64,000 nt of DNA from Cyanophora paradoxa CCMP329 (GCA_004431415.1 QPMI01000609.1:1-64000), one strand, 5' to 3'. Shown: positions 10,846 to 36,445, counted from the first letter of the stretch. The notes: generated by a model from the sequence alone, not told the origin. Numbers and translations are program-made.

Positions 10846-10846
10846 C

Positions 10847-10881
10847 CTATCATGCCCACTCCATGGGTCAAACCTATGGCC
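10847..10881 (+). repeat. Left imperfect terminal inverted repeat
   Basis: CTATCatgcccactccatGGgTCaAACctaTGGCC matches the reverse complement of 36411-36445 at 20/35 positions without gaps (manual count). Confidence 0.65.
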
Positions 10882-10954
10882 TTCAGACGGGCCCCGCTAG
10901 GACCGCCCGTGTCCCCCGGGGCATGTGCGCCCGCAGTACCCCAAGGGTCAAATA

Positions 10955-11100
10955 CTTTTCGGCAATTCTGCCATAATTTTGGCGGGGTCCGGCATAATTC
11001 TGGCGCAAATCTGGAATAATTCGGCAGAATTAACGGCATTTTCGGCTATTTCGCACGGAACTCGGCGGGATTACGGCAGAATTGCGGCGGAATTATCGGG
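10955..11100 (+). repeat. Subterminal array of degenerate ~10-11 bp repeats (CGGCNNAATT-like)
   Basis: cggcaatt, cggcataatt, ggaataatt, cggcagaatt (x2), cggcatttt, cggctattt, cggcgggatt, cggcggaatt in tandem. Confidence 0.75.
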
Positions 11101-11255
11101 CCTCGCACGGGTTCGGGCGGGCGGGGCGCTTGCAGTACTTCGGCGGCATGGTTCTGTCGCTTGGGCTGTCTCTGGTACTGGGGTAGAATATTTTTTTGGC
11201 GGGGTCAGGCTTTCCAACTTTGGATCGGGGTTAAGCCCAACCAAACCCGCCGGAG

Positions 11256-11915
11256 ATGAGCACGGGCATCTGCTGCCGGCCACCCAGGAAGCTCGAGTAC
11301 CTATCCCATCACGGGGAAATTCGCGAGGGGGGGCTTGTCTTCTACGGCACCGTCGGGCACCAGGTAGTCTACATCGTCCGGCGCGATTCGGAGGTTGCCA
11401 TCGGCCTGCTTCCCATGCCGACCCTGGCCGAGCTCCCGATCCTCATGCAGTCGCGGTCGGCCGAGTGGGCGCCCCTGGTGTCCGGGGACCTGCGCATCCC
11501 CGTCGATCTCTTGAGGCACCTCGCCGCCCCCATCTCGGACGGGACCCTGCAGCCCCGGCGCGTCCTGGTGGCCGACGGTCGGCAAGCCCTGGAGGTAGCA
11601 CCAGAGGAGGTCCGGCCCGGCACGGGCACGGGAACGAGGCGACGGCCCTGTGTTGCGGCGTACATGAGACCCTTCCTTTCAGAGGGCAGCTGGATCGAGC
11701 CGTACCAGTCCTCCCCCGAAGCACACAGGCTAGCAGTGGTCCGTCAGGTGTGGCCGCATCACATGACGGATGCGCACCCCCGAATGGTCGCCCAGCTAGA
11801 TTGCCTGGTCAGCGGATGGGCCCCAAACCGTGCTTCCCCCCGCCTCGACCTGGCTGAGATTGCTTTTTTGTGCGATCGCGCACCCCAGTCCATAGGGCTC
11901 CGTTCTGTACAGTGA
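11256..11915 (+). CDS. Hypothetical viral protein (219 aa)
   Basis: ATG-to-stop intronless ORF with a T7 tract ~60 bp upstream. No motif recognised. Confidence 0.55.
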   Translation: MSTGICCRPPRKLEYLSHHGEIREGGLVFYGTVGHQVVYIVRRDSEVAIGLLPMPTLAELPILMQSRSAEWAPLVSGDLRIPVDLLRHLAAPISDGTLQPRRVLVADGRQALEVAPEEVRPGTGTGTRRRPCVAAYMRPFLSEGSWIEPYQSSPEAHRLAVVRQVWPHHMTDAHPRMVAQLDCLVSGWAPNRASPRLDLAEIAFLCDRAPQSIGLRSVQ

Positions 11916-11948
11916 TACCAAACATATCGTGCTGTCTCTACTTGAAAC

Positions 11949-12386
11949 TCACTGCCGGGTCCTAGGCCGCTTAAGGCTGCACAGGGCGTACGCCGCCCCG
12001 AGATCGTCTACGGTGCTCCCGGGTGTCCTCGCCCCATCCTTCCACTCCTGCCTCTTGATGACCGCAACGTGCTGCTGGGGGCGCCCAGCGGTCGAGATGT
12101 AGACATCGTATATCTCGGGATCCCGGAGCGCTTCGGAGAAGGAGATGCGCAGTGTCGTCCTGGACCTGGGTCGCACCACCAGGGGCGTGCTTGATGAAGG
12201 GCACCCCGGGCTCCACCGCACGAAGGTGATCACAAAGGCCTCGTGCATGCGAGATGTGTTGCGCAGTAGAATATCCAGGGTGCCCGTGCTCTCGACGGCT
12301 ACCTCGAGCAGGCGGTACGGTGGCCGCATTGGTTCGGCGAGAAAGGTCTCCTTCTTCGTGCGGAATTCCACCGGGGAGAGCGCCAT
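11949..12386 (-). CDS. Hypothetical viral protein, beta-rich
   Basis: ORF from MALSPVEF; divergent from the next gene. Confidence 0.5.
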   Translation of the reverse strand: MALSPVEFRTKKETFLAEPMRPPYRLLEVAVESTGTLDILLRNTSRMHEAFVITFVRWSPGCPSSSTPLVVRPRSRTTLRISFSEALRDPEIYDVYISTAGRPQQHVAVIKRQEWKDGARTPGSTVDDLGAAYALCSLKRPRTRQ

Positions 12387-12493
12387 TGTGCCCCTTCCTG
12401 TATTCCAGACTGCCTCTCGATCGGCTGAGGTTTGACCCCCCACGTGTGCCTTTTTCTGCACCCCTGCTAAAACAGAGTACCCCGCCCACGGCC

Positions 12494-13444
12494 ATGTCCG
12501 CTGCAGGGTTCGGGGAACTCAGTGCAAACTCCGGAAGCATGCACTCTGGGGGTGAGCAGGGCTCCATTACCTTTCAGTGCGCCTTTCCTACTGTCATATC
12601 GGCACGGTACGGATGCCCTGAGACGGGCCAGTGGCAGGATTGGACGGCGTACATGAAGAGCAGAACGGAGGACGGGACCTGGTCCGGTACTACCCTCAAT
12701 CCTCCCGGAGGTTCCTGGGCGCCAATATCGTACGACAGATCCTGGGGTTTCGGGGGCGATCCTGCGTACGGAAGGGGTAAGACGGTCGAGGTGCAGTACT
12801 CGTGTGCGGCGTCCTGTGCCAACGTCCAGGACGGGCGACGCGTTGGAATGGAATGGTGCAGGGTCAACATGGCCAACTTCTGCTCTACCAGGCTGGAGGA
12901 CCAGCGATGTGCGCTCTGGTCCAACACGTACATCAAATCCGCCCGCGATCCCCATACGACGTACGCGGCCATGGACGCCGCGATCGAGACCTACTGCTCG
13001 GGGCACCCCAACGATTCCAAGTGCGCGTGCTGGCTGTTCCAGAAGCAGCTCTACAACAGCATGTACGGGAAGGACGAGCGGGGCGGTATCGTTCCCGCCT
13101 CGTGCGTGGCCCTGGGACCGGGCGGCAACAATCCCTGCACAAAGCCCGGGTACGAGCCCATCCTCCTGACCAAGCTCTCCGGCGGTGCATGCACGGCAAA
13201 CATCCGGAACTGCATTCAAAAGGTGGGCAATCTCACGGGGCTCGGATCCGAGAACGTCAACTTCTCCTGTGAGCTGGGGGGCGGGTCTAGCCTCAACCCT
13301 GTCGCGGGCGGGGGGTCTGGGTCCGGCTCTTCCTCCTCGACGCAGGCTCAGATCATCAAGGGGGTTGACAACAAGGTGCTCTATATTGCAGGCGGTATCT
13401 TTGGTTTCATGTTCCTGCTTGTCGTTCTGAAGAGGTTCCTGTAG
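12494..13444 (+). CDS. Poxvirus A16/G9/J5-like entry-fusion protein with an N-terminal SUEL/Gal-lectin-like domain
   Basis: N-term FQCAFPTVISARYGC...FGGDPAYGRGKTVEVQYSC (SUEL pattern). Cys-rich core NFC..DQRC..W..MDAAIETYCSGHPNDSKCAC..PASC..PC..CTANIRNCIQ. G/S linker and C-terminal TM helix. Confidence 0.7.
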   Translation: MSAAGFGELSANSGSMHSGGEQGSITFQCAFPTVISARYGCPETGQWQDWTAYMKSRTEDGTWSGTTLNPPGGSWAPISYDRSWGFGGDPAYGRGKTVEVQYSCAASCANVQDGRRVGMEWCRVNMANFCSTRLEDQRCALWSNTYIKSARDPHTTYAAMDAAIETYCSGHPNDSKCACWLFQKQLYNSMYGKDERGGIVPASCVALGPGGNNPCTKPGYEPILLTKLSGGACTANIRNCIQKVGNLTGLGSENVNFSCELGGGSSLNPVAGGGSGSGSSSSTQAQIIKGVDNKVLYIAGGIFGFMFLLVVLKRFL

Positions 13445-13446
13445 CA

Positions 13447-15250
13447 CTAAAACTCGATCACAACCAGCCCGTTTCCTCCAGGTCCCGTGGTACCCCCCGC
13501 CGCACAGGGTCCCTCGTAGTCGAGATCATCTGTTCTGGGAGCAGAGGGCCCCGTGTTACCATTGCCCCCTGGAACCGTCAAGGCACCCGTCACACCCGGT
13601 CCGCCAAAGTAACTGGAGCCCCCCCCACCAGCATAGAAGCCTGCACCGCCTCCATAGTACCCCGAGCCACCCCCGCCCCCCGAGTATGCAAAATTGCCCA
13701 CGATCGTACCGCCAGCGTACTTGGAGCCATCGGTTCCTGTGTGGCCGGCACCTCCGCCGGCTGTCTGCGTACCTGGTTGACCTGCTCGCAGTGTGCCTGC
13801 AAAATAGAAGGAGAACTTTCCTCCGGTGAGGCCCCCGCCAACCCCCCCGGGGCCAGTGTTGCCATGGTCAAGATGGCCGCCCCCTCCTCCAGCACCCGCC
13901 GTAATAATATCATCCGTGCCCCCTAGCAGGCGAATAGCAGACCGGCCACCCCCCGATGAGGAGTTTGTGAGGCACTGAACCTGGCCGCCGCCTCCATAAG
14001 GGGCCGCATTCGAGATTGCCGTAGATTTGCCGCCCCCGCCGACTATGATAGTGTACATGGCACCTGGGGTAACAGCCAGAACCCCAGACACGAAGCCACC
14101 CGCACCGCCCTGGTGGCTTCCGGATGCCCCGCCTCCTCCACCGGCCCCCCATAGCTTAACAGAGATCCTCGTGACGCCACCGGGAACAGTCCAGGTCTGG
14201 TCGGCGCCCCTGAATCGGAAGACAACCTTTGGGGCAGGATCGGGCTGCAGGAGCTGGTACCAGACCACAACCAACCCGGGCGATCCGTTATTCGAGCCTC
14301 CATTCCCCCCTGTCCCGGCAGAGGACTCGTAGTCCGCATCTCCTTGGTTGGCGGGAGTCGGGGTTGCCCCTGAATGGGTCAAGCCCCCCGTCACTCTAGA
14401 ATGGGACACAAAGCTGGAACCACCGCCGCCGCCGTTTTGCCCGCCGCCGCCCCCATAATAGCCCCCGCCTCCACCGCCGCCGACAGATGCATTGAGATTG
14501 CCGCCCTTGAATTTCTGGCCGGCCTCTCCGCCCGTTCCCCCAGCGCCCCCTGCTACCTGGGATCCACCGAGACCGCTGTGTGTGTACCCCGAATACCCGT
14601 TTGCACCGCCCACAAGCCCACCTCCCCCTCCCCCTCCGCCGTACTGAATTCCAGCCGACCCCCCTCCTCCGGCAGTGATGAGCTCTTCTGCACCCTCCAG
14701 GATGGCGGACCGTCCGCCTCCAGATCCCATCCCCGTGCTGTAAGTGTGGTAGACCACGTGCCCCCCTCCGCCGTAGACTGGGCTGAGGCAAGCCCCGAAG
14801 TTACCGCCGTACAGCCCTGGGCCTCCGACTACAATCGTCAGCCTTGTTCCGGGGGTGACAGACAGGGTCCCGCCTGCAAACCCACCACCCCCCCCATTGT
14901 TTGTCGACGCGCGTGCCCCGCCCGCACCCCAGAGTTTAATGGTTACGCTTTGGACCCCGTACGGGACGGTCCAATCCTGATCACCCCCCGTGTACCTAAA
15001 AACCGCCTTTTCGGGCGCTGGCGGTGGAAGCAGTACAGGCTTCAAGGGCGGGGACAGGATGCGCAACAGCGAAAGTCCGGACCCCACTGCAATGCTGCCT
15101 ATGCGCTCAAATGCGGCGGAGTTGAGGTACTCACCGAGCCATTCCCTATTTGCGCGGAAGATCTGCAGCGAGGCCCGAGTCGGGACCAGGAGGAGTGTCC
15201 ACGGGGAGAGGTGGGAGATCCCAAGGCTGGCGTAAGTCCTCGGGGCCTGG
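13447..15250 (-). CDS. Glycine-rich protein with two tandem Gly_rich (ALK/LTK-type polyglycine) domains, probable fibre/adhesin; no ATG, probably 5'-truncated
   Basis: Two copies of VFR(Y/F)xGxDQxWTVPxGVxxxxxKLWGAGG...GGGRSAI...ITAGxGG...GYYGGG...GGGGSS...GLVV. The track start at 15087 is GTG and the frame stays open upstream. Confidence 0.75.
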
Positions 15251-15861
15251 TGATCCCATTCCTCGCCCGTGCGACAGGCTCCTGTTCCGGCGGCAGGGTC
15301 GGAGGGGTGGGCTGCACAGGTTCTGGGGCCTTTGCACCCCCTGGAAGGTGGCCGTCGAACTCCCGGTTTGCAAGGAAGGTGACCCCCCCTTGCTCGGAAA
15401 ATAGGGGATCCTGTCTGGCCTCCTTCAGGGTAAGCCCTCCCCTCATGAAGACAGCCTCATCTGTGAGCCTGTCCACGAAAGCACGGAAAGCAGGTCTTCG
15501 CAGGGCCCGAGCTCGTCCTCAAGCGCTGCAACGGCCCTGAGGTACCGTGCACGGGAGCCCTCGTCGTGGATGGATAGGAAGGAGCCCATCAACTTTCCAG
15601 TGATCTGCCTACCGGGCCAAACCCAACCGGCCAAACCTCCTACGATCACGTGCCTGTACCCCATCCCCGTCCAGAATTTGAATTCGGCCAACTGTTATTT
15701 TTTTACAAGAACAACATGGCTACTTTGCTAGAGGTAGCGCACGCAGACAGCAGAAGAGCGGGTCGCCATGATCAGGTTGAAGGGCGTCAACAGGGGACTG
15801 CCACGGGGCCCCCAGGCAAAGAGACCCCCGTACTTGATCTGGGGGACCAGCAAGAACATGG

Positions 15862-16103
15862 CGTGCACGGATCCGGGCTGCCCGCCAGCCCAGCGGAGGG
15901 ACGCTTGCGGTTACTGCGGGCAGGACGGTAGCACGTGCACGGAGGTCCCGTGTGCGCCCGGGCACGTTCGAAATCCGTGCGGGAACGAGTGTATCCACTG
16001 GGAATCTCAGGAGGCCATCGATCGCTTCAATTGCATCTCCAGGCTCCTGGGGAGGGGCAGGAACTTCGAGGATCCCTTCCGCACGAGGTGGGCCCTATGG
16101 TAG
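15862..16103 (+). pseudogene. 3' fragment of a Cys-rich (DACGxCGxDxSxC) protein
   Basis: CTDPGCPPAQRRDACGYCGQDGSTC; same repeat type as 28720-29208. Confidence 0.6.
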
Positions 16104-16111
16104 CTGAAAAG

Positions 16112-16175
16112 TGTGAGGGGCTTGGCCGGTTTTGCTTTCTTTTATACTGTCCCAAAACCGGCCAATCCCCTCATA
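16112..16175. terminator. 23-bp stem hairpin between convergent viral ORF ends
   Basis: tgtgaggggcttggccggttttg / 18-nt loop / caaaaccggccaatcccctcata, with one mismatch and one G-U pair. Lies between stops at 16103 (+) and 16234 (-). Confidence 0.65.
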
Positions 16176-18287
16176 TGAAAAACCGGTACCCCCCTTTTCC
16201 AAAAACTTCACATGATACGGTCACCTGAGCCCATCATATGAAATACCAGTACCCCACATGTCCAAACATAGACTTTACGGGATCAAATTTTCTCCCAGGC
16301 CCGAATAAAGAAGTCCATGGCAGGCATGTATCCGGGGAGTTCCCCTCCGTGGACACCACGCCCGAATGGAAGGAGTACTTCAGCCTCACCCCGCCCGAGG
16401 GGGGTGCGTACAGGATGTGCGCCAACGAGTGCAGGCCCTTTGAGATCCCGATCTCGGGGTGCGCAGACAGGATGCGATGGCGGCCAGGAGATCAGCCGGC
16501 AGTAAAAGTAGCATGGGGGGGTTTGGCCCGTGTCAGTTTTGGTGGCAAGAAATCCCAGATCGGTCCAGAAAAGTACAAACCCATGAAGTTAGACTGGCGG
16601 AAGGTTGCGGGGGCCACAGCGGCGGCGGCGGCAGGCGGGCGGTACCCCGGGGCGGCATTCGGGGCCTGGGACTGGACAGGGTGGTTCTCCCGGCGAGGCA
16701 GGGCCTGGGGCACACCAGCACCCTGACCGTTGAGGACGGAGAGAGACGCGGCCTCAACCATGGCTATATTGAACTGCGAATGGTACTCTAGACTTTAGAA
16801 AAAAAAACCGACCGCACCTCCGACGAAGGACCTGGCCACAACCCAAACGCGACCCAACAATGTCTGCGGCGACATACCACCGTTCCCAGAGCAGCCCGGG
16901 TCCCCTGTTGACGCCGAACCCTACTGGCATAGTGTCACTTTCCGACATAACACCGGGCGAGGCGGAGGAGGCTCTGGGTCGGCACGTTATCGGTTGCGTC
17001 TACTGCCTCGGATATGCGGAGAACGGCGTCCAGGGCGAAGGCTTCCAGGTTTCGCGTGAAATCTGCCCTCTCCCTTTCTTCTCTCATCTGCTTCAGGTCC
17101 TTCGCCCACTCCTGGGCTCGGGTCTGGAGGTTTGTGGGATCTAGGAGCTCCATTGTGATGCACGGTACGAGAGGAGGGGGGAGGTTTGCCGTCCGCGGAT
17201 CAACAGACGTGGCCCCCTTTGCCTGTCTCTCGGCCCTCAGAATCAAAGCCACAAAGCTTCTGGTTCCAGATCAATACTACTCCTGCAACGCTCTACACTC
17301 CAAACGACCTTGTCGGTTTTGCCATGACGGGCATCCGGCTCGTTCGAGGGAGGTCCTGGAGTCCATGGTGCACTTCACGGAGACCACCTGGACGGCCCCG
17401 ACGGCCGGGGGCTCGGGGCAGCGGACGATCTGCAGAGTAGGTGGCCCCCCAGCCGGTATCCCATCCGGTGAGGGATCCCGATTCGGAGGGGGAGGCCAGG
17501 GTGCAAAGGCAGGCCAGCGGATTGGCCCCATTGGCCAGGATAAACACCCCCCTGTCCCGCTTTGCACTGTTGACATCCACGCTGTTTTCCTCGAGTACTC
17601 CCGCCAGGATACGGCCTGTTCGGAGGTGGCACCGGGGGTCTGGCAGGCCTCCTAAGCCCAGGAAGCCCCGAGTTTCATGTCGTAGCATGGGCATGCCCCG
17701 GTAGCGTAATGAAAGGAGGGTACCTCATCACCCCCCGCAAGAACGCGCAGGTCTGCCTTGTCTACACCCCTTTCGGCCCCTACAGAACATCCTGGCAGAG
17801 GTACGACGGTGACTCTCCTCTGCTGCAGACTGTGCACCCTTCTCTGCAAGTAACCTCACTGCAGTAGTAAACCGAATCACACGGGTTACATTTCCCGCAA
17901 AGATATTGTAAGAATCTTCTGGAACGATTCTGTAGAAGCCTGCAACCATCTGCCTGCTCATCTGCTCTAACTCGGCCAATTCCCTGATTACATCATGCTC
18001 TGGGATGTTCATGTTTTGCAACAGTCTGCAGGAGGCACAGGAAAAAGTTTTAGCGGAAGTTCTCCCGGATAAGGCAGAAAGGACCCCAGAACGGCCCTAT
18101 TGCCATTCCAGCCAGGCACTCAAAGCCCGCCTTGACTGCAGCGGTTGCCGGTTTTCTCCGTCGCAGGTCCTTGTGTGCCTCCTCCCATTTTGCTTGAGTG
18201 TCGCCTGTTTTGATGCACCACAGGAAGGAGAACAAGTACAGGGGCTGGGCGACGCCGACGTTTGGAATGGGCGCCGTGTGCCTGAAG

Positions 18288-18566
18288 CTAGTGACCCCGC
18301 TGGGACTCTGGGCGAAAGTGGTGGTGCAGGGAGTGCCTGAATGCGAAAGAAGAGAACTCAGAGAACGTGCATGAATCAAGGAGCCCCCAGCTGGACCTGA
18401 ACTGCTCCAGCGATGCCCAAACCTCCAAGAGATCGTCAATGTGGTCAGCAATCCAGGACGACTCGGCCCTGGTCATGACGTGAGAGTTGTAGGTGTGGCG
18501 CGGGCCCGGGGGGGCGAGATCGCTACCTCTCCTGCGCCCGGCCCCGAATGCGTGAAGTGAGCTCAT
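18288..18566 (-). CDS. Small protein resembling a conserved NCLDV hypothetical family
   Basis: WIADHIDDLLEVWASL..LLDSCTFSEFSSFAFRHS matches the W...DL..W..L...F.DF..F pattern recalled from algal/Imitervirales viruses. Confidence 0.45.
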   Translation of the reverse strand: MSSLHAFGAGRRRGSDLAPPGPRHTYNSHVMTRAESSWIADHIDDLLEVWASLEQFRSSWGLLDSCTFSEFSSFAFRHSLHHHFRPESQRGH

Positions 18567-18657
18567 GCCTGTTGTACGAAAAAGACCTAATTTAGTATAT
18601 TCGGAACGAGAAAGAAAACAGAGCGGCGTCCGGCCGCGCCCGGGCATGGGGTGGCGC

Positions 18658-18966
18658 CTAGTAGTAGTAGTCCTGGCCGTAACCGCCGTAGAAGTCCTGG
18701 GCTGCGGCAACCTTCTTGCCACCCATGGCGGAACCGGCCACGCTAACGAGGGCCAGGAGCAGGCCTGCACAGTTGGCAGCCGTAAGCGTGCCAATCAGGG
18801 CGACCTTCTCCTGGGAGGCGCCCGCATCCTTGGCGCGAGTGATCTCGGTGCCGGCCAGGATTACATTGCAGAGGAAGATGATTCCAAGGAAGATCCAGAA
18901 GATCATACATTTGCCCTTTGCGTTCGGGTCGCAGAACGTGATAAAGCCCGGGAGGTGGAAGGCCAT
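18658..18966 (-). CDS. Small two-TM viral membrane protein
   Basis: 102-aa ATG-to-stop ORF with two hydrophobic helices and an A8 tract ~40 bp upstream. Confidence 0.6.
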   Translation of the reverse strand: MAFHLPGFITFCDPNAKGKCMIFWIFLGIIFLCNVILAGTEITRAKDAGASQEKVALIGTLTAANCAGLLLALVSVAGSAMGGKKVAAAQDFYGGYGQDYYY

Positions 18967-19044
18967 TGCGTGCGAGTGGGAGGCTGTGTGTAGTGTAATG
19001 AAAGAGATTTTTTTTGAACACAGGACCCCTTCTACTCGAAAGAA

Positions 19045-19705
19045 TCAATCCCCTCCAAAGCCGGGTCTCCCGGCGTGGGAGGGACCGGCCCCGGGGTCGT
19101 CCCCAAAATCGGGCCCCGCAAAATCCCCGGACCCCTCCTCCTGCAGAATCACATCAACTCCGGAGACGACCCGGGACGAGATCCGCTTCTGCTTGTACAT
19201 GCGGGTGACGGAACGTTCCGATACCACAAGCTTGCAAGTTGTGAATGCGGTCGAATAGAGCTCCTTGTCCCACTTGGGCTTGTTGACGTTGTTCTCCTTG
19301 CACCAGTTGAAGAACGCTTCCCTGAAGATGCGCTCGGGGCACCATGCCGTGCTTCGGAGGACGACACTCTCGCTCCCGAGGAAGGCATGGACGGGGTTGA
19401 GCTGCATCATCTCGGCCTTGGTCTTCTTGAAGTACTCAGGAACGACAATCCAGATCCCCTGGTTGCCGTACTGCTCGATCGCAGCAAGGTACGCGCGGTT
19501 TCCCTTGACGAGAAGGGCAGGGAGCTCCTCCTTGAGCTTCAGGGGCATGAGGGAGTCGGTGGCCTCCACGGGGCGGTTGAACTCGATAACCATGACACGG
19601 CGAGAGACCGACCCCGAGTTATCGATCCAGCCGGGGCGCTCGTTTCCGGCCAGTATGCCGGGGACGGTCCACCGGACGCTGATGGGCCGCTCACCCTTGA
19701 TTCGG
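19045..19705 (-). pseudogene. D5-like primase-helicase, C-terminal fragment
   Basis: SVRWTVPGILAGNERPGWIDNSGSVSRRVMVIEF...ELPALLVKGNRAYL (SF3 motif C and Arg finger, plus C-terminal domain). Walker A/B absent. Confidence 0.85.
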
Positions 19706-21031: not shown

Positions 21032-21413
21032 ATTCAGTCTGGTATACATTCGCAGCGAGTCACGGGAGTAAAACACTGTAACGAGCAAGGATCTCCAGCT
21101 TGGCCCGTTGGGTGTAGGCCCATGCACTCATTGGCTCTTAGGTACTCGTTTCCAGGCTCCCCGTCGTTCTGGCCGTCTCCCAGGCTCGGCGTGGGGCGCA
21201 AAAGAGGTACATCCACAACCCGCTCCGAATTGGGCATGCCGGCAACCCAGGAACGGATCCGGGAGATGCCGATAGTGTACCAGACGCTGAAGGTGGCGGA
21301 GGAGGCATCGCGACGGGAGAGCCTGGCGCTGACCCTCTGAAATGGCATGTCCCGTCCGAACCGGGGTCCCACAGGAGCCACGTAGTAGGGAGGCGTCCAC
21401 TGTTCGGGGCGCC

Positions 21414-26718: not shown

Positions 26719-26777
26719 TCCCCCGGTCGTGTTGCAAGGCGGGCAAGAAAATAATACAGGATGAGCGTAATCGGCGA

Positions 26778-27220: not shown

Positions 27221-27226
27221 TCTTAG

Positions 27227-27760
27227 ATGCACCAGGGGGCTCCCATCAATTTCTGCAGGAACCCCGCGCACGGCAGACTCTGCCTTGCGTGCTTCAAAAC
27301 CTGGGTAGAGGCCAAGGTGAGGTGCCTGGAAGATAACAGGCCCGTTGCGATGAACCGCACGCTCTTCCAGGTACAGCAGGCGGGGCAGGTGGAAGCCGGC
27401 AATGCATCCTTCCGCCCCCCAACCAGGTACAACTACAACCCGCCCCCTCCACGCAACACAGCCCCCCCAACCCGGTCCGATCCAGTACGGCCCGCGCCCC
27501 CAGATGGTCTACCGGCCCCCTTCCGCCCCCCACCCCGGTACGACCCGACCCGCCCCAGCTTTTACCCGGCTCGACGAGTTCCACAGGCCGGTGCAGGGGC
27601 GCGAATGTTTGGTTACCTCACGCAGGCCGGCAGGGGCCTAGCGACCGCTGTCAAGGTCACAAGAGAGTTCATGGGCAGGGTAGATGCGGCACGCAGGGAA
27701 ATAGAGGTGAGGGACAGGACGAACCCGGCAAATCTGCCAATCAGAGGAAACCAGACCGCT
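27227..27760 (+). pseudogene. Fragment with partial RING-like Cys/His cluster and Pro-rich region
   Basis: FCRNPAHGRLCLACFKTW..RC followed by RPPTRYNY-type Pro-rich sequence. Confidence 0.4.
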
Positions 27761-28719
27761 GCCCACATTGCGGTACATGCCGACCTGGATGGTGACGACG
27801 AGCGTCCGGAGCGATTTGGGGATGTCGTCCTTTGCCCTGGAGAAGGCAAGGGGGTCGATGTAGCGCGGCACCGAGTAGTTGTAGATGCGTCCATCCAGGT
27901 AGACCTCCTCGAGGCCTGGGAGGCCCCGCAGGTGTGCGAAGGCCTACTGTCTGTACGCCGGAAACACACGCTTCACCCAGAACTCCCTGCCCTGGATCGG
28001 CCACCTGTTCCGAAAGACGACCGGCTCCAGTACCGGAGGAGGCCGACTGCGGGCGGGGCCGGGAGGAGGACGACGAGGAGGACGCCATATGCATTCCACC
28101 CTGGGGGCTGAATCTTTTCCGGCCCGCGCAAACGCGGTGGTGCCGGGCGTACAGTTCCCTGAGGGTCGCACGGTGCTTGGCTAGCGATGGAAAGTGCTTG
28201 CCACCGAAAGGATAAGAGGCAAAGGGGGGTGCAGGAGTCCCGTTGTCACGGTAGTCCGGCATGCACGAGGCACAGTGAAAGGCGACCCCCTCCAAGAGGC
28301 AGTGCATGGAGCCAAGAGCCAAGGCCATCGAGCCTTCCTGTGCGGGCCCCTCTAGGGATCCGCCCTGGCCTACCAGGGTTTCAAAGGCCCTCTGCGCTCC
28401 TGCGAGTCGTTGGACTCTAAGGCAGGCCCGGCTTGCTGCATCGGCTTCCAGTTCGCTCATATTGGCAGTACACGGGACGCTACCCCCTACAGCCCACACT
28501 TCTGCAGCTGGTCCGGACGCATGGGGCGGAAGTGGGTGAACCCCATCTCCATCAGGAGGTCAAGGCGGTGTGCCATCGCCTCCTCGAGCGTGTCGAACTG
28601 GGCGGCCTCCTCGTCATCCCCGAGCCGGTCCGATGTCCACTTGGTCGTTCCGGCAATTTCGGTCCTCCCGTGGACGAAGAACTTGCCGGATTCAGTATCT
28701 TTCTGCACCAGGAGCGGGA

Positions 28720-29208
28720 GGTGGAATCCTCACCGGGGGGGCATCCGGTGGCGGGACAGACATTGGGCGTCTCCCCTTCAAAGGCACAATCCCCGCAGCC
28801 GTTTCTGTAAGAGCTGGCCATCTCGCACCCGGGACCCCGGCAGGCCGAACCGTTGCCCCCACAGTCTCCACAGTCGTCACGGTGGATGCCCGCTGGGCAT
28901 CCCCTGTCTGTGCAGAGGTTCCCATTGCCACCACACATGCCGCACGCATCCCGAATCATCCCAGGGGGGCATCCCTTGGAGGTGCACGTAGAGTTGTCAC
29001 CCCCACATATTCCACATGCATCCGGGGGCTCCCCCAGCCGGCAGTTGAACACAACATTGTTCTCTTCGGGGGAGGTTGTTCCAGTGACCTCCAGGAGATC
29101 TCGTGCCCTTGATCTGGAGGCGCGGACCGACAGGAAGGTAGCGTAGGCTGCGGCCGCTATCAGGATGATCAGGATAACCGCCTGGTCGATACCTGTCCGA
29201 CCAGACAT
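28720..29208 (-). pseudogene. N-terminal TM plus Cys-rich DxCGxCGGxxSxC repeat protein, 3'-truncated
   Basis: TM AVILIILIAAAAYATFL, then DACGICGGDNSTC, DACGMCGGNGNLC, DDCGDCGGNGSAC. Confidence 0.7.
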
Positions 29209-29216
29209 GCATCGAG

Positions 29217-30395
29217 TCAACACACACAACCTGCTACCGAGAAAAAGTAGAGGGCACTACACCGAGGATGAACAGAGGCGGACACGAAGGGCTGGATGAG
29301 CCCGTCGCCCTCGTGGCCGTAGACGGAGATGGTGGCCATCTCCATCCCGAGATTCAGGAGCAACATGCCGGTAAGACTCGCAAGCGTGCTCGCAACCCCC
29401 TCCTCGTGCGACATCCCGGCGGCGGTGTCTGCCATGTTCATCACGGGGATGTGCATCTCGAGGGTGCGGAGGGCGCTCGGCAGGGAAAAGGATTCGAGGG
29501 GGAAGCTGATGGGACCCTCGCGCCGCTTCAGGTTGCCGCTGATGATGATGAGCTTCTCGAGCGACTCCCACTTCTTCGCACTCCGCAGGATGCACCGGAC
29601 CACCTCGGTCGAGCAGGTGTTGGCGGTGAAGGTGACCTCGCGGGGGCCGGCCTCGTTGTGCGGGATGCAGTAGAAGCAGGCCCCCAGCGTGGAAGGGTCG
29701 TCCGCTTGCTGCTCTCCGGGCACCCCGAGGATGCTCATGAGGCCCCCGAGGCTCCCGGCGGACGCCTCCGACATTCTGAACGAGCGGCTGGGGTCCTCTG
29801 GGTATCGGCGGACGGTGAACCGCTGGATGTTGGGAAACGCCGCCCCAACCCCGGGCATGTCGATCTCCCAGGGCGGCGGGTGGGAGCTGGCGTTTGCGAT
29901 GAGAACCGTGAGATCATCGACCGACGGCAGGGGTGTCCCCGGGAGCCAGTCCTCCTCGCCCTCCGCCGTCAGCTCTAGCGTCCTGAGGTTCGGGAGGGGG
30001 GCCTGGACGTTCGCCTTGCCGGCGGCCTTGAGGACGCCACCGAGTTCCGCGGAGGAGCAGGAGAGCCGAGCGAGGCGGGAGAGTGCGACGCTGAGGTCTG
30101 CCCTGGTGCGGGTGGAGACGTGACTGCCGATTTCCACCGGTACCGGCCCGCTGCCATTCGGTCTCTTGAGGGCGAGGGTGGTCGCTCCGATTTTGGAGAT
30201 GCAGGCCAGCAGCTCGACGGCCTTGAAGGGGGCCCGGGGGATGTCCTGGACCATGGTGATCTCCGACGGACGGGCGTGCTCCGGGACGAACGCCTTCACC
30301 CACGTGAAGAAGTTGGAAGCGGCCGGCGTCATGTCGCCGGGGGCCCCGAAGCGGCTGCAGTAGCGCGTGTAGGAGTGCAGCTCGTACGAGACCAC
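29217..30395 (-). CDS. Leucine-rich-repeat (RNI-like) protein
   Basis: LPNLRTLEL, LPSVDDLTV, FPNIQRFTV, SLEKLII, ALRTLEM motifs; start uncertain. Confidence 0.55.
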   Translation of the reverse strand: MVSYELHSYTRYCSRFGAPGDMTPAASNFFTWVKAFVPEHARPSEITMVQDIPRAPFKAVELLACISKIGATTLALKRPNGSGPVPVEIGSHVSTRTRADLSVALSRLARLSCSSAELGGVLKAAGKANVQAPLPNLRTLELTAEGEEDWLPGTPLPSVDDLTVLIANASSHPPPWEIDMPGVGAAFPNIQRFTVRRYPEDPSRSFRMSEASAGSLGGLMSILGVPGEQQADDPSTLGACFYCIPHNEAGPREVTFTANTCSTEVVRCILRSAKKWESLEKLIIISGNLKRREGPISFPLESFSLPSALRTLEMHIPVMNMADTAAGMSHEEGVASTLASLTGMLLLNLGMEMATISVYGHEGDGLIQPFVSASVHPRCSALYFFSVAGCVC

Positions 30396-31046
30396 CGTGC
30401 ATCCACGGGAGCGCAGGAAGGATCGCCCCAGCAGGCGATGTCTGCGTCATCACCTCCCCGAAGCGCCCTGGAATCGACCTTGATGGATGCGTGGAGGGAG
30501 GGAGTGATGTACGGAGCTGAGTGTCCCACCCCCCTCTTCAAAGGCCCTGGGGGCCGAGGTTGGTGGCCGTGGTCGCATTTCCCTGGGTCTGGGCACGGTA
30601 CAGGAGGTCCTGCAGGTCCATGCTGGTCATCTGGGAAGTCTACGTGCAGGGCTTAACCCCCACCGGGGCAAGGGCTGGCATGGTACCCCAAAGGACCACA
30701 AAAAGTCGGATCGGACCCAGACGCCTGAACGCGTCCCCCCGGCCCACCACAAACTCTCTGCTACATTGCAAAAGCAGCCAAATGCCGGCAGAGTCTGTTG
30801 AAACAGTTCGAGACCCCGTCACCGTCGTTCTGCACCTGCTCCTGATGGGGCGGTCCGCCGGACACCCGTTCGTGCAGATATCGGTGTTGGGGTACCAGCG
30901 CCCTCCCAGGCGCGGCTGATCTCCACTCCTACCGTCCAGCTTGATCGTGTGCTTGCCTTTCGCTTTCCGTTGCCATCCGTATGCTCGCAGTCCATGTTCT
31001 GCATGTCGATCTTCAGGACCAGCTGGTGTGGGTTTGGACCCTTTTA

Positions 31047-31244
31047 GAAGACCTGGGGGGCGCAGTAGACCCCGTTTCGGTACGCGAATATGTGCCGGTC
31101 CCGCACAAGCTCGGGAAACTCCATCGTCAGGCAGTTCTTGAGGCTGGTGACCAGGCAGCCCCTAACCGACGCGTGGGAGTGCATGAGCTTGTACATGCTG
31201 TAGTAGACATCCTTGTTGGTGAGCTCCTCGACCAGGCGCTCGAT
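31047..31244 (-). pseudogene. D5-like primase-helicase, internal (D5_N region) fragment
   Basis: LKNCLTMEFPELVRDRHIFAYRNGVY matches the F.EL..DRH..SF.NG.Y motif. Confidence 0.75.
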
Positions 31245-31449
31245 TGACATGATCAACGAGGTGGACGCTAAGCTTGAGTCGAAAGCATCCGCGGCCGGGC
31301 TTTTCAATAGCTTGACAACAAGTATTCTATTCATCGTGGCGGGCATAGTGGTCATTGCCTTCCTTGTCATTCGTTTCGGGAAATCAAAACCGAAAGCACC
31401 TACATCCGCGGCGGCTGCTGCCACCGCAGCAGCCGCCGCTGCCACCTAA
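31245..31449 (+). pseudogene. C-terminal fragment of an L1/F9-like virion membrane protein
   Basis: INEVDAKLESKASAAGLF, then a TM helix and basic tail; 5' part missing. Confidence 0.45.
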
Positions 31450-31599
31450 GAGGATGGGAAGAGGATGGATGCCCGGGTGGAGAGGATAGAATCGGGGGGG
31501 TTCAGGGCCGGGGTGTTCGATTCTTCCGACGCACACTCGGCAATAACGGACCACTGCTGCTCCCCCCTGCGAACGGCGATCAAGCCGAACCCGTAGTTT

Positions 31600-32234
31600 C
31601 CGGTATTGATGTCACCGCTTTCCATCCTCTCTGCAAGGCGCTTGATCTTGTTGGCCCCTGCTGGGTTGGCCCGAGGGCTGCAGCTGATATCAGTGGTTTA
31701 TGCCATTCAACCAAAGAAACCGCCGATGATCTTACAAGACTGCCTAGCGTCCCTTGCCATCGCAGCATGGGGCTCGTCCAGGTGGGTCAGCAACCACGTG
31801 AGGCGATGGACAGCCGCCTTTGCAGCCTCCGGCTGGACGCGGCTTCGGAGTACGATGTTGTGCCCCCCTTGATCCTGGCGGAGGCCATCCTCGCATCCCT
31901 ACCGGACGGCCCCGTCGTTCTACAGATCTCCCACGAACCCATGTGGTTGAACCCGGTGTACGAAACGGCCCGCGGGGCTCTGGCAGTTGCGGCGGCCGTG
32001 TTGGAGGGGCGCCCGGATCGAACCGTCAAGGTTGTCATGGACGTGGTGCCCCTGGGAGAGCTCGAGGCCTCTCCTGCATTCCTGGGCCAGCTGGTCAAGA
32101 ACGCAGCGGGCGTGTACCTCCGCAGCTGCATCGTTCCCGAGGGGAGGCCCAATTCGGCCTCTGCCCTTGCCTTTAAGGCCCTCGAGGCCGACGGAAGGAA
32201 GTTTGTGGTCACCGGGCACGTCGGCCTGCCTTGA
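31600..32234 (+). CDS. Hypothetical viral protein
   Basis: Open frame extending upstream of the 31767 ATG; start uncertain. Confidence 0.4.
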
Positions 32235-33232
32235 TGTGTGTGCGATGTGTACAGAGAATGGATTGAAACTGCCCCCAGAATCACTGTCACTTGAAATATA
32301 TTTCTGCTAGGTATCCTAGACACTCAAAAGGGTCATGCCGTCGAGCTCTATCGCAGTTCAAGGCCATGATGATGCAGAGGCAGGGCATCCAGTTCGATCG
32401 CAAGTTCGACGCCAACACGCCCCTTCCGGAGCTGCGGGCCGAGGTTCGCAGGGCCGCCCGCGTCACGTCTCCCAGGTTGTGCCCGAACCGGGAGAGCCCC
32501 AGCCGAGCGTCTTGGAAGCCGGATGCCACCTGGCCCCCCACGCTATTGTAAGCATCCCCAGCATTCTGCAGGCCGCGTGCCCACGCGCCTTGCATGCCTG
32601 CGTAGGCCATCGAAGGGTTTGGGTTTGCTCTGCGGTCAGAAAAAAACACCATGGCCCAGAATATATTATGTTGCGGTGATCCCGAGCCCACCCCGCCATG
32701 TCCGAAAAGCTAACGGCCACCGGCGCGACCCTCCTCCTAATGCAGAACAGATGGCCTGTCCAGCCTCGGGGCAATGTGGATTGTCATCTCCTTGGGAAAG
32801 AACCAGCGCTGGTTGAGCTGACGGGGACACCAGTGCTTTCCGTACTTTGCGCCGCGCTTCTTCTGCTTGTGGATCTCGTCCTCGACGACGAGGCCCTGGG
32901 CGTAATTCCACCCGATAACGATGTCCACAGTCTTGACGGCCGAGAACAGCGGGGAGCTCAGGGCCAAGAGGACAGCTGGGAGCCCTCCCTTGAGGTCGAC
33001 CCAGGGACCTCCTTTGGCTTTGATGCCATCGAGCACGGTGCAGGCGCGCTGGGTCTTGCCTGGTCCACCGTTGGCCCTGCGGCCCCAGAGCCGCCAGTGC
33101 AGGTTTTCGCCCTCCACATCAAAGATGACACGGCGGGGCCATGATAGGAACCGGGGCGGCCTGCATTGCACAACAACAAAGGGCACGCTGCTAGGTTGTT
33201 GGGGGGGAAAAAAATACTGACCAGAGTGAAGA

Positions 33233-33685
33233 ATGAAGGACAGAGGCGGGATACCGGTGGCCCCAATCCTTCTCCTGGCGACCCTTGCGGTTCTGGCACT
33301 CTTCTGGTTTTCAAGGGACGACCAGGGCGTGCCCAAGAGCGAGGCCCCGATCCAGGCTGCCCCCTTGCCCTCCAGGCCTCCCCCTGCAGCGGCTCCATCC
33401 ATCCCCCAGCAGCCCCAACTGACAGCCCCCGTGCCAGGCGCCCCTGTAGGATCTGCCGGGCCGATTATCACTGATGAGGGAGGTGCGGATGGGTGGGACT
33501 ACACGGATGAGCTTGAAAAGCTGATTCCCGAGGTGCAGTCTCCTTACATCCCTCCCGATTCCGTCTTACCCTCCGCGGGTCCCGTGCTTGTTGCCCCCCC
33601 AATCGAACAATCCAGCGGGCCGGTCGAGATCGACGAGTGGGATGCCGACTGGTACACTGGGGGCTGGGACGAAGAATCGACCCCA
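33233..33685 (+). pseudogene. Signal/TM-anchored Pro/acidic protein, 3'-truncated by a convergent Cys-rich fragment (~33680-33940, minus)
   Basis: MKDRGGIPVAPILLLATLAVLALFWF... with an A7 tract upstream. The opposite strand reads CTGTGLCNSHCP/CTATGVCDDTCP/CSPTGTCNTTCP. Confidence 0.6.
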
Positions 33686-34010
33686 GATCGGTACCTGTCC
33701 CGAGGGGCAGGTCGTGTTGCAGGTTCCTGTAGGGGAGCACTTCATCCCGTCGGGGCAGTTGTACACCCGGTACCAGCCCGGGGGACACGTATCATCACAA
33801 ACCCCGGTCGCAGTGCAGAGGGTTCCGTCCTTGCAATCGGCGATCGGCCACGTCGAGGGGGGGCAGTGGCTATTGCAGAGGCCTGTTCCCGTGCAGACAT
33901 GTTTGCGCTCCTTCCGGATGATATCACGAGGAAGAGAGTACTTATAGCCGGCGGGGGCAATCCCCGGTCACCTTGCAGCCACCTCGCAGACCAAACCAGC
34001 AGCAGAAGCC

Positions 34011-34343
34011 ATGGGCAAGAAGCAGCAGCAGAAGAAGCAGCGCGGCGGCCCCGAGAAGAAGCCGAAGAAGGAGCCAATCGACCTCGACGAGCTGAGCGCG
34101 GACGAGAGCGTTCCCGCGGCGACCGGCGGCCCTGGGGAGGCGCCGGCGGCCAAGGAGAGCGCTCCCGTCGTCGAGGCAGAGAAGACCGCGGAGGCCAAAG
34201 AGGCCGGGGAGCCAGAGACCAAGCCAGAGGCCGAGGAGCCAAAGGCAGACAAGGCCGCCGAGACCGAGCCCAAGGCCAAGCCGGCGGTGGAGGAGCCCGA
34301 GGAAGGCTCCGATGGGGAGTTCGAGGAGTCCGACATGGACTAG
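34011..34343 (+). CDS. Small Lys/Glu-rich disordered protein
   Basis: Complete 110-aa ORF with strong codon bias. Confidence 0.65.
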   Translation: MGKKQQQKKQRGGPEKKPKKEPIDLDELSADESVPAATGGPGEAPAAKESAPVVEAEKTAEAKEAGEPETKPEAEEPKADKAAETEPKAKPAVEEPEEGSDGEFEESDMD

Positions 34344-34425
34344 GCCCCGCCCACCCCGCCCCACCAGCTAGCCGGATGTACAGCACGGCCAGGCTTTCCA
34401 ATTCCGTACTTTCATTGCGCATGTG

Positions 34426-34755
34426 TCACATGGGCCGGGTGGTTCCGCGGCCGCAAAACCGCGGGCGGAAGGAGAGGTAGTTTGTGTACCGGGAGCCGTC
34501 GCGCCTGAAGCAGACCACGATGCCCTGGTGCTCGTTGAGGTAGCGGGTCTCGCCGGCACCGTGGGAGTCGTAGATCAGCCGGTGGATCTTCTCGGGCCGC
34601 GACGAGAGCTCGACGTAGCTGGCGGGGCCCTTGCAGAGGATGGGCGGCACGGTGCGCGAGAACAGCCGCCCGAAGCGTAGGGCGCGCAGGGCGAACCGCG
34701 CCCTCCGCACCGCATCGGGGCCCAGGGCGTCCCGCGCGGCCCGGCACGAGTCCAT
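34426..34755 (-). CDS. Hypothetical viral protein
   Basis: ~110-aa ORF with strong GC3 bias. Confidence 0.45.
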   Translation of the reverse strand: MDSCRAARDALGPDAVRRARFALRALRFGRLFSRTVPPILCKGPASYVELSSRPEKIHRLIYDSHGAGETRYLNEHQGIVVCFRRDGSRYTNYLSFRPRFCGRGTTRPM

Positions 34756-35349
34756 CACGGCTAGACAGGAATTGTAACAATGAAAGGGCCGCCGGGGGCG
34801 ATCCGGACTACGAGACCACCCTCAGGCGCCACAACCACCCGGGGCTCGTCTCCGGGCGCGGGGAGCGGCATGCGGACGAGCTCGCCGAGCGTGCAGGGGA
34901 GACGGGCAACCCCTGGCAGTCCCCGACGCTGGAGATGCGGGCAGTCTACTTCAACGTCCGGAGAGCCCTCGAGGGCGCACTGCGCACCAAGCTCGGCGCA
35001 GAGGACCTGCAAGGGTCCAGGCAGGGCGTGCTCTCCGGCATGAAGAACATGTTCACGGCAGCTCAGATCCGCCGCCTCCTACGGGCGATGTGGATAGAGC
35101 CTTTTGCAGCCAGGGACGACCCTTCCGAGGAGAGGAACCGCAGGATGGTCGCCGAGATGTTCGTGCTCGATGAACCATTTGGGTGGCTGCGGGACGGGTC
35201 CGCTCAGGTCGCCCGCACGAGGCGCCTGGTATGGAAGCGGGCCACGCGGTCCCAGCCCCGCCTCCTGATTCACCGGGAAGACAACTACCAGCACCCAATC
35301 AACAAGACGAAGGAGTGGTTCCTTGATTTCATCGAGAACGTTCTGCCCA

Positions 35350-36251
35350 GGCTTGGCCGGGTTTTTGGGCGGCTCGGGGTGGCGGCCGTGCGAGGTGTAC
35401 ACGTAGACAAGCCTGTCGCCAAAGTCCATGGTGGCCATCACGAAGCCCTTTTGCGTGGAGTGGTCCACGATCAGGGGCCGCCACTTGGCCGTGTTCGGGT
35501 TGCGGAAGAGCTCCTCGATCTTCTTCTCCTTCGGCGGCCGCAACTGCTCCGGGGTGGCGCACCAGGTGCACAGGGGCATGGTAGGGGGGCCGCGCCGGGG
35601 GACCAGGGGCTCGGCGTAGGTGGCCAGGCGGCAATCGACGTTGTAGCACTTCTGCTTGGGGACGCTGAGCATGCACGGTCCGCAGCGGATCCCAAACTGA
35701 CGGGGCCGGGTGCATCCGGGCATGTCGCACAGGGGCTTGCAGGCCTTGCAGCAGGCGTCACCCTCCATGGGCGGGTCCGCCTTGCACTTGATGCACTTCT
35801 TCCCGGCGGCCTCCCTGAAGCAAAGGCGACAGGCGTCCTGGCCCAGCTCCTTGAAGTAATCGCGGCCGCATCCGCACATCTCGCGCTTGGCGTGCTCCTT
35901 GCAGAAGCCCGCAGGCTGGACGTGGCCGGGGAGGTTCCGCATCGGCATCTTCAGGCCAGCCCTGATGCACTCGGCGCAAGGCAGGCTCCGGGGGTCCGTC
36001 CCGGGGGCGGCCTTCATCCGCGCATCCCGGACCTGGCACTTCTTGCACATCCCGGCACGCAGCGTGGCCCGGCTCAGGAGCAGGCCGCACCCGCAGCGGG
36101 TGCCGCCACCGCACGCCCCGCACCTGTCGAAACCATCCTGGGCCCGCTTCGGCTTCCCGGAGGCCACGCACGCCTCCCCTTCGCACAGCTTGACCTCCTT
36201 CTTGGCGCGCTTGGCCGCGGGGGCGTCCCGGGCGTCCTGCTCTCCCTCCAT
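35350..36251 (-). CDS. Cys-rich multi-zinc-finger protein, 3' end colliding with a convergent fragment (34935-~35350)
   Basis: NLS-like AKRAKK, CEGEAC..KRAQDGFDRCGACGGGTRC (WRKY19-like finger pattern) and many CxxC pairs. Confidence 0.65.
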
Positions 36252-36410
36252 TTTTGAATGCTCCCGAGAACCGGCCAAACCCACTGGCCAAACCCGTTTC
36301 GATTTGCCGTACCCCCTCCCCTTCAGGTTCTGGTGTAACTCTTAAACCCTGCGCGGTTTTCGTCCATACCCCCCCTGACGGGCCCCCCCGCCGCACTAAG
36401 AGCTCAGACG

Positions 36411-36445
36411 GGCCAGCCGTTAGAGCCCCCTTTTACGCGCGATAG
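36411..36445 (-). repeat. Right imperfect terminal inverted repeat
   Basis: Reverse complement is CTATCgcgcgtaaaagggGGcTCtAACggcTGGCC. Confidence 0.65.

Follow-up and report, generated by a model that had tools for sequence, protein, structure and literature searches.

A 25.6-kb insert of giant-virus-type DNA in a host nucleotide-cyclase exon, with recurring ends: a candidate relic of an integrating virus

An exon of a host nucleotide-cyclase gene is interrupted by 25,599 bp of foreign DNA, at 10847..36445 of the window (the whole 64-kb stretch of DNA that was analysed). This sharp insertion is real, because an unbroken contig enters it from the host flank and because removal of the element restores the host reading frame. 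The restoration is exact, as an earlier note on this DNA had claimed. Giant-virus origin and clean insertion, also proposed there, are upheld. With moderate confidence, we interpret the element as what remains of a giant virus, from an uncharacterised lineage, that integrated into the host genome: its interior has collapsed, and its ends have been retained. Features of the locus are listed here.

10243..10846, plus strand: host exon, left part, membrane region of the nucleotide cyclase (part of P0010, carrying PF00211)
10845..10846, plus strand: CC, candidate 2-bp crossover core or duplication (sequence; frame restored)
10847..36445, unstranded: insertion of non-host, giant-virus-type DNA (continuous contig, Markov test, CpG)
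36446..36447, plus strand: CC, right junction (sequence; comparison with other right ends)
36448..36488, plus strand: right part of the host exon, continuing the frame of the left one (translation across the junction)
37069..38080, plus strand: downstream host cyclase exons, with limits that are our own reading (PF00211, E 2.4e-5)

The interrupted cyclase gene is dead. Translations of the downstream exons contain in-frame TAG codons at 37075-37077 and 37649-37651. A search of host paralogues for Ala-Leu-Glu versus Ala-Leu-Leu-Glu at the empty site returned the cyclase gene alone, and the contig of a likely cyclase paralogue aligns only from 36455 onward.

Support for the junctions comes from Logan short-read contigs. 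One of 26,905 bp, from run X1, spans 9528-36432 and has 0 differences from the window in the aligned stretches 9528-23500 and 36150-36432. The left junction is also crossed by a contig of run X19. It is bridged without differences in both of the two DNA runs, with a depth equal to that inside the element. Depth stays flat, at the single-copy level, across most of 11.4-23.5 kb. For the last 13 bp of the element and the right junction, there is no bridging contig among those listed, and the host flank past 36501 has no cover among the listed contigs of four runs, an absence that carries no weight. All sampled words of the sequence are present in 20 runs from 19 studies; no RNA run is among those listed as containing all of them, and the RNA contigs of X21 and X24 give short matches only, with no bearing on expression. 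An assembly artefact, or contamination, might be argued from the right junction, and from the fact that every one of the 20 runs is flagged as a possible source of the sequence. The bridged left junction, the frame restored across both junctions, and the sharing of words between so many studies make this highly unlikely.

The element is contiguous with the host chromosome and differs from it in composition. In a Markov test, 24 of 25 one-kb windows inside it score as non-host, the exception (34001-35000) scoring near zero. Observed/expected CpG is 0.72-0.99 inside the element, compared with 0.95-1.24 outside; this depletion may be native to the virus. The two Nucleocytoviricota hallmark genes present, A32 and D5, had been named in the earlier note, and their homology is confirmed by profile and sequence comparison. 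Both are broken, as follows.

25767..26177, minus strand: A32 packaging ATPase, N-terminal piece, aa 8-144 of P0001 (profile E 4.7e-47; 82% to P0001)
20645..20863, plus strand: A32, C-terminal piece, aa 173-245 of P0001 (profile E 2.4e-22; 77% to P0001)
31056..31259, minus strand: D5 primase-helicase, middle piece, profile 218-285 of 648 (E 9.9e-10)
19138..19707, minus strand: D5, C-terminal piece, profile 454-643 of 648 (E 3.7e-37; PHROG DNA primase, E 1e-9)

No intact gene set is left in the interior: A32 and D5 are both in two pieces, and the former description of a gene-dense interior was misleading. Profile comparison shows that the pieces of each gene are complementary, without overlap. 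The A32 pieces are 5 kb apart on opposite strands, the N-terminal one being fused in frame to a Pro-rich repeat (tandem repeats at 25242-25543). Both lie between the two D5 pieces, of which the C-terminal is 11.3 kb downstream of the middle one. The nearest relative of both A32 pieces is P0001, a full-length A32 on a 21.5-kb Logan contig; the next best relatives are 39-45% identical. The donor therefore has a more complete relative. Searches of viral and metagenome contigs found nothing closely related to P0001, and no close relative of the D5 piece was found either. The best viral matches of A32 and D5 are giant-virus contigs, at 35-46% identity; for A32, identity to IMG/VR contigs is at most 46%, and the D5 middle piece is 28-32% identical to viral contigs. 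In 4 of 80 giant-virus contigs, D5 occurs in the sequence flanking A32, so a single neighbourhood can supply both genes. A quick A32 tree, whose 47 rows comprise 40 of the 80 loci, P0001-P0006 and the N-terminal but not the C-terminal piece, joins the N-terminal piece to P0001, with support of 100, on a long branch placed in no group.

Other reading frames in the interior are listed below.

12494..13444, plus strand: 316-aa ORF, Cys-rich, with a C-terminal hydrophobic helix; A16/G9 candidate (no family, PDB, Atlas or fold match)
22929..23477, minus strand: a shorter ORF, paralogous to the N-terminal region of the 316-aa ORF (40% over 124 aa, E 7e-22)
13447..15009, minus strand: two glycine-rich domains in one open frame (PF12810, E 1.8e-25; PF21722)
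29217..30332, minus strand: 371-aa ORF, likely of leucine-rich-repeat type (low-confidence model, pLDDT 43)
35079..36251, minus strand: 390-aa Cys-rich ORF, an orphan (matches itself alone among 1.84 billion representatives; no Atlas match)
28552..29208, minus strand: ORF with Cys repeats and a hydrophobic stretch near its N-terminus (49% over 45 aa to a paralogous piece, 15768-16103, plus strand)

The Cys pattern of the 316-aa ORF may resemble that of A16/G9. That assignment, made in the earlier note, finds no support in Pfam, PDB, BFVD or the Atlas; the single-sequence model is poor (pLDDT 50), and no close relative was found. PF03003 was not found in the two viral records searched, of five, which left no reference for comparing profiles. 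L1, named alongside it, has no match in the Pfam search of 263 frames. For the 371-aa ORF, most of the best BFVD matches to the model are LRR/F-box proteins of giant viruses (the strongest at E 1.7e-4, which is weak).

Our searches of the interior covered 263 stop-to-stop frames of at least 65 aa with Pfam, 47 frames with PHROGs and 49 with NCBIfam. In agreement with the previous reading, these recognise no capsid protein (MCP), PolB, integrase or recombinase, or transposase inside the element. VLTF3 and RNA polymerase are also unmatched in the three collections. Tyrosine recombinases gave neither a family nor a motif match inside the element, and serine recombinase TnpA, TnpB/Fanzor and HUH endonuclease gave none. 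No host-like cargo was detected across the 25.6 kb, and there was no Rfam match and no tRNA. Outside the element, no transposase was found in 106 frames scanned (of 162).

The ends of the element recur elsewhere. Their features are given here.

10847..10920, plus strand: multi-copy left end, starting CTATC (other contigs align from its first base)
36384..36445, plus strand: multi-copy right end, ending GATAG (31-mer depth; five further records align)
10883..10893, plus strand: subterminal direct repeat TCAGACGGGCC, left copy (11 bp)
36404..36414, plus strand: right-hand copy of that repeat (36377 has a shorter form, GACGGGCC)

The matching ends of the earlier note amount to just a 5-bp inverted repeat, CTATC/GATAG (complementarity 5/5 and 7/12 bases), and the 11-bp direct repeat. 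The latter occurs only twice in the 64-kb window, and an 11-mer is shared by chance in 0.7% of random 100-nt pairs. No long similarity was found between the first and last 400 bp of the element, and hairpins at the termini do not exceed those of shuffled sequence in strength (z -0.9 and -0.7). In each DNA run, three other contigs align from exactly 10847, rather than 10846, across 47-74 bp; this sets the left boundary. One further left-end contig aligns from 10857. The right-end 31-mer at 36403-36433 has a depth of 4.0-4.5 times that of the interior in all three DNA runs. Contigs aligned to the window thus bear out the expectation that the ends are present at several loci, each with a different interior. 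One such element, of 145 bp, bears both ends and is in 3/3 DNA runs; a second is at least 135 bp. These short elements differ from the present copy at 5/44 and 5/49 bases, and are therefore not a recent burst. A 1.1-kb record lies beside the right end at about three times single depth, and a record of similar depth extends 44 bp beyond the right end. The end patterns had 0 matches in metagenome contigs and 0 in viral contigs.

The precise junction can be read in several ways. CCTC is present on both sides, as had been noted, but the host frame is restored under four readings: a 4-bp CCTC duplication, 3-bp CTC, 2-bp CC, or no duplication. With the other copies starting at 10847, the 4-bp reading is the least supported, and a target duplication of 2 or 3 bp is more likely. 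At the present locus, CC is on both flanks of CTATC…GATAG. Elsewhere, the C at 36446 is common to all three other right-end records that reach that base, and CC is in one of them. The three other left ends per run stop short of the C at 10846; they are mostly preceded by G, and their flanks, known as one merged line rather than copy by copy, end AG with an agreement of 0.59. These variable flanks fit a CC/CG core. They also fit terminal repeats of 6 bp, GCTATC/GATAGC, combined with a duplication of 3 bp.

How might such an element arise? In our preferred reading, the ends would be attachment sites of the virus. Recombination would have joined a circular viral genome to the host at a 2-bp core (CC at this locus), which has the inverted repeats GATAG and CTATC on its two sides. 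The recombinase would be virus-encoded and site-specific, and by analogy with phaeoviruses may be a tyrosine recombinase. After integration, the provirus would have been silenced, and then reduced by deletions and at least one inversion; genes for capsid, polymerase and integrase would have been lost on the way. The remaining loci with such ends, as short as 145 bp, would be sister insertions at a later stage of this decay. The present element is predicted to be inert. The non-host interior, the complementary gene pieces and the recurrence of the ends with other interiors favour a relic, as do the shared nearest relative of the A32 pieces, the CpG depletion, the methylated insertions reported in the likely host species and the phaeovirus and punuivirus parallels described below. 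Against it, the junction core is not invariant across copies, terminal hairpins are unremarkable, no long recombinase-bearing copy with these ends was seen among the contigs aligned to the window, and the position of the A32 pieces between the D5 pieces is an order unexplained by plain deletion. The earlier note had suggested a derivative of an integrating giant virus, with both ends, integrated in trans. The derivative remains the best reading; in-trans integration is unneeded, because end-retaining relics of punuivirus shrank after integration (10.1101/2024.09.03.611062).

That published shrinkage also bears on a related scenario, in which a defective viral genome was scrambled before integration with its ends kept, or viral ends became mobile via the recombinase of a helper provirus. 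Exact junctions around a heavily rearranged interior would suit this, as would the short two-ended elements and the depth of the right-end 31-mer. Yet the interior is single-copy and flat in depth, with its contig unbroken to 36432, the short elements have diverged, and the record at about threefold depth is possibly a duplicated region, given the one of similar depth that passes the end. We consider the scenario unlikely. The same grade applies to a host DNA transposon that captured viral DNA, the Pack-type element raised previously. This could use GCTATC/GATAGC ends with a 3-bp duplication, the element being 10846-36446, or could be an IS607-like serine transposon with a GG/CC core. CTC flanks 10846-36446 exactly, the bases beside the other ends (C on the right, mostly G on the left) agree, Pack-MULEs and Helitrons typically join fragments in a mixed order (PMC6431247), and IS607 elements have short direct repeats at their ends and a GG core (PMC6188088). 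Multi-copy ends with different cargo also fit a Pack-type transposon. It is weakened by the lack of host-like cargo in 25.6 kb and of a transposase in the element, Pack-MULEs being mostly 1-2 kb and below 7 kb according to the former source. Furthermore, the 3-bp reading requires a substitution at the first base of the present copy, and the latter source describes an invariant GG and unrelated termini, compared with a variable core and inverted-repeat termini here.

An intact or near-intact small virus of 25-45 kb, such as a mriyavirus or an NCLDV-like PLV, would match the element in size, and a small donor would make retention of both core genes easier. NCLDV-like small viruses with a tyrosine recombinase or a retroviral-type integrase do exist (10.64898/2026.06.19.733378). 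However, MCP, HUH and integrase are unmatched in Pfam, PHROGs and NCBIfam, A32 and D5 are broken, and their best matches are giant-virus contigs; the A32 tree holds no mriyavirus or PLV references, which leaves some room for a small donor virus. An intact or near-intact small virus is quite improbable.

The collapsed-relic reading is best set against known systems. Punuivirus relics in Chlamydomonas reinhardtii, of 48.2 kb and 5.28 kb with both termini kept (10.1101/2024.09.03.611062), are similarly giant-virus DNA of up to tens of kb, with intact termini, clean junctions, several loci and no integrase inside. Punuivirus has 10-15-kb TIRs, ACC-GGT termini and 6-bp TSDs, whereas the element here has a 5-bp inverted repeat and a 2-3-bp duplication; its relics map to a full-length GEVE, whereas the interior here is shuffled and no full-length copy was seen. 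In brown algae, phaeovirus proviruses insert into genes; their host-virus junctions read CC-CC (or GC-GC), the core lies between inverted repeats, and one of the ends bears direct repeats (PMC13236599). The likeness of the inverted repeat is one of arrangement. Those proviruses are intact, at 288-407 kb, with a tyrosine recombinase near an end, a nearly invariant CC and an AT-rich inverted repeat, and target introns, UTRs or intergenic DNA; in contrast, the element here has no recombinase found inside, a variable core and a coding-exon target. Pack-MULEs, Helitrons and large CACTA elements (PMC6431247) also hold gene fragments between cis-acting ends and are non-autonomous, but carry host fragments; the cargo here is all non-host, without Helitron or MULE ends. 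IS607-family serine transposons, which occur in eukaryotes and giant viruses (PMC6188088), share a 2-bp GG/CC core and short direct repeats near the ends. They are small, with invariant GG and unrelated termini, while here CC follows only one of three other right ends and neither TnpA nor TnpB/Fanzor was found.

Methylated giant-virus insertions are reported in Cyanophora paradoxa (PMC12344493), the same likely host species, and are likewise clusters of giant-virus genes; section 9 of that source gives no boundaries, ends or integration mechanism, and one of its supplement files does not name this contig. The main text of PMC6704402 contains 0 occurrences of virus, viral or transposon. Our literature search found no description of these ends or this locus, and supplements on punuivirus relics may hold very short two-ended relics.

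The 145-bp two-ended element, and the 1.1-kb record at about threefold depth, look like parts of a mobile non-autonomous family, which counts against the relic reading. It is conceivable, if doubtful, that viral attachment sites became such a family in a glaucophyte, with 145-bp units moved by a helper provirus and able to deliver 25 kb of shredded, re-joined viral DNA to host genes. If true, giant viruses would have an equivalent of MITEs and defective-interfering genomes, and algae would host a third lineage of integrating nucleocytoviruses. Support falls short of the unusual class of mobile element once proposed, the entry-fusion genes being unconfirmed and the duplication likely 2 or 3 bp. 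The entry of giant viruses into eukaryote chromosomes is resolved in few systems, namely phaeoviruses and punuivirus. Exact ends are now given for an uncharacterised lineage in a likely glaucophyte host, where insertions were known before only as methylated gene clusters. As a direct probe of the genome, these ends should reveal every insertion, the rule of target choice, the integrase, and whether viral ends become independent mobile elements; the exon target is a rare datable case of giant-virus DNA interrupting a host gene.

The element (10847-36445, 25,599 bp) is a foreign block inside a host exon. We scored one-kb windows using a Markov model of four-base context, each trained with the one under test left out. 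Scores were non-host in 24 of 25 windows within the element, and host in six of the seven flanking or straddling it. The CpG observed/expected ratio is 0.72-0.99 in the element, compared to 0.95-1.24 in its surroundings. All sampled words of 9900-19800 occur in 20 public DNA runs, from 19 studies, each a possible source of this DNA. In one such run, X1, a single 26,905-bp contig spans 9528-36432, with no differences across the aligned parts. A contig from a second run, X19, also bridges the left junction. Hence, this junction is real and no empty allele branches there. The X1 and X19 alignments further indicate that the interior has no second, nearly identical copy. For the right junction, no bridging contig was found among those listed, and none covers the host flank beyond it in any run, which we attribute to filtering. 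An assembly artefact is an unlikely origin for the insertion, and we give it almost no weight.

The interrupted gene encodes a membrane-bound nucleotide cyclase (PF00211). By our own reading of exon limits, TAG stops interrupt it at 37075 and 37649, and its frame shifts near 7937. Hence, judged from its sequence, the gene is dead, and may have died before or after the insertion. The short AT-rich stretch around the upstream-exon frameshift (7930-7950) resembles an insertion or transposon footprint. A 26-bp piece of host exon (36455-36480) is repeated in the next intron (36630-36655). Elsewhere, 39000-42600 has lower GC, few introns, open frames and no Pfam match. The one-kb window at 39001 leans slightly to the element model, and the region is possibly another mobile or viral insert. 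Two copies of a 234-bp direct repeat (46849-47082 and 49548-49781), 85% identical, lie 2.7 kb apart.

The earlier note proposed a CCTC duplication. CCTC does flank 10846..36445, but the host codons at the junction are Leu, four readings restore the frame, and other copies start at 10847. A 4-bp CCTC or 3-bp CTC duplication gives Ala-Leu-Glu; a 2-bp CC, or no duplication, gives Ala-Leu-Leu-Glu. The 4-bp reading is the weakest, since it requires a first base that is absent from every other copy. This leaves two types: the junction may be a 2-bp core (CC or CG), or else the terminus is 6 bp long (GCTATC/GATAGC) and the duplication 3 bp.

Both ends occur elsewhere. Two DNA runs each contain three further contigs whose alignment starts exactly at 10847 and covers 47-74 bp, and one that starts at 10857. 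Their merged flank terminates in AG (agreement 0.59). The right-end 31-mer 36403-36433 has 4.0-4.5 times the interior depth in all three DNA runs, and a 1,106-bp record at ~3.4 times depth joins at 36399; note that depth does not translate exactly into copy number. All three other right-end records reaching 36446 have C there, and one has CC. One record carries the two ends on one strand, spanning 145 bp (record positions 1619-1763 in X1, 3803-3659 in X19). A second has the left end and 36384-36432 inside 135 bp, and diverges thereafter. The termini share a 5-bp inverted repeat, CTATC and GATAG. An 11-bp direct repeat lies 36 bp inward of the left end and 31 bp inward of the right, and does not recur across the 64-kb window. 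At other loci, an 87-bp record containing right end 36404-36446, at ~3 times single depth, extends 44 bp past the end; no left-end record listed has comparable (~3-fold) depth. Possible explanations are duplication of the region, a target that is itself repeated, or an extended terminus in that subfamily. Just inside the left end (10940-11110) are imperfect, AT-richer, AATT-centred short repeats that Tandem Repeats Finder did not report.

Across 263 stop-to-stop frames, the Pfam cut-off was exceeded by a glycine-rich protein alone; PHROGs and NCBIfam added a primase C-terminus. The A32 and D5 homology recognised in the earlier note is present, but each gene is in two pieces. The nearest A32 relative, P0001, is a full-length protein (293 aa) from a Logan contig.

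A32 and D5 pieces within the element
26177-25767, minus strand: A32 N-terminal piece, residues 8-144 of P0001, 82% identity
20645-20863, plus strand: A32 C-terminal piece, residues 173-245 of P0001, 77% identity
31259-31056, minus strand: D5 piece, profile positions 218-285 of 648
19707-19138, minus strand: D5 C-terminal piece, profile positions 454-643 of 648

The next A32 relatives have 39-45% identity. Since the D5 pieces enclose both A32 pieces, at least one inversion and at least one transposition-like rearrangement must be added to deletions, unless the donor had paralogues. The A32 N-terminal piece is fused to a Pro-rich repeat, and scrambling may in part predate integration. Of 80 giant-virus contigs, 4 have D5 in the flank of A32. 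P0001, of the same lineage as the element, sits on a 21.5-kb contig (three contigs); its source is likely a more complete insertion or a free virus. Best IMG/VR matches are giant-virus contigs (36-46% identity). Within the element, paralogues form two pairs. The product of a 371-aa ORF is similar to LRR proteins of giant viruses, though its structural model is poor. Searches gave no support for the A16/G9 and L1 entry-fusion genes suggested previously; cysteine spacing in the 316-aa ORF (12494..13444, plus strand) may resemble that of A16/G9. Capsid, PolB, integrase and transposase are missing from the Pfam, PHROGs and NCBIfam matches, and no HUH match was found in the element. Two short stretches (24654-24810 and 22532-22700, both minus strand) resemble the protein-kinase glycine loop, one with a weak Pfam match (E 0.08), and are probably further gene scraps.

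CpG-methylated giant-virus insertions are reported in the glaucophyte Cyanophora paradoxa, the likely host, with boundaries not given in the text examined (PMC12344493). In phaeovirus proviruses, both junctions carry CC (GC in FsV-158), inverted repeats flank this core, one end has direct repeats, and there is a tyrosine recombinase (PMC13236599). Phaeovirus insertions are often fragmented (PMC11890097). Punuivirus relics of 48.2 and 5.28 kb keep both termini and duplications, and are interpreted as post-endogenisation deletions (10.1101/2024.09.03.611062). Our element is like the phaeovirus proviruses in junction anatomy and the punuivirus relics in shrinkage. It lacks a recognisable phaeovirus-type recombinase, and the long TIR and 6-bp TSD of punuiviruses.

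An integrated giant virus, collapsed in place, is the explanation we favour, with about half of our confidence. The insertion, its ends, its cargo and the broken genes are observed directly. On the favoured reading, the ends would be viral and joined by a recombinase; the provirus would then be silenced, and its interior would collapse. Against this, the core differs among copies, no long partner copy with these ends was seen among the contigs aligned, and the 145-bp two-ended copies resemble a non-autonomous family. Mobilisation of the ends in trans is less likely, and differs from collapse in place mainly by timing. A transposon carrying captured viral DNA (PMC6431247, PMC6188088) is about as likely as mobilisation in trans: the cargo is entirely non-host, the size argues against a Pack-type element, and tests for membership of Pack elements, as of IS607, were negative. 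An intact small virus (10.64898/2026.06.19.733378) is very unlikely, as its defining genes were not found in the element.

The element behaves as an end-retaining giant-virus relic, which is a known kind. The novelty lies in the host group and viral lineage involved, in the ends and the shuffled interior, and in the 145-bp form; in a literature whose coverage is thin for subscription journals, we found no published account of these features.
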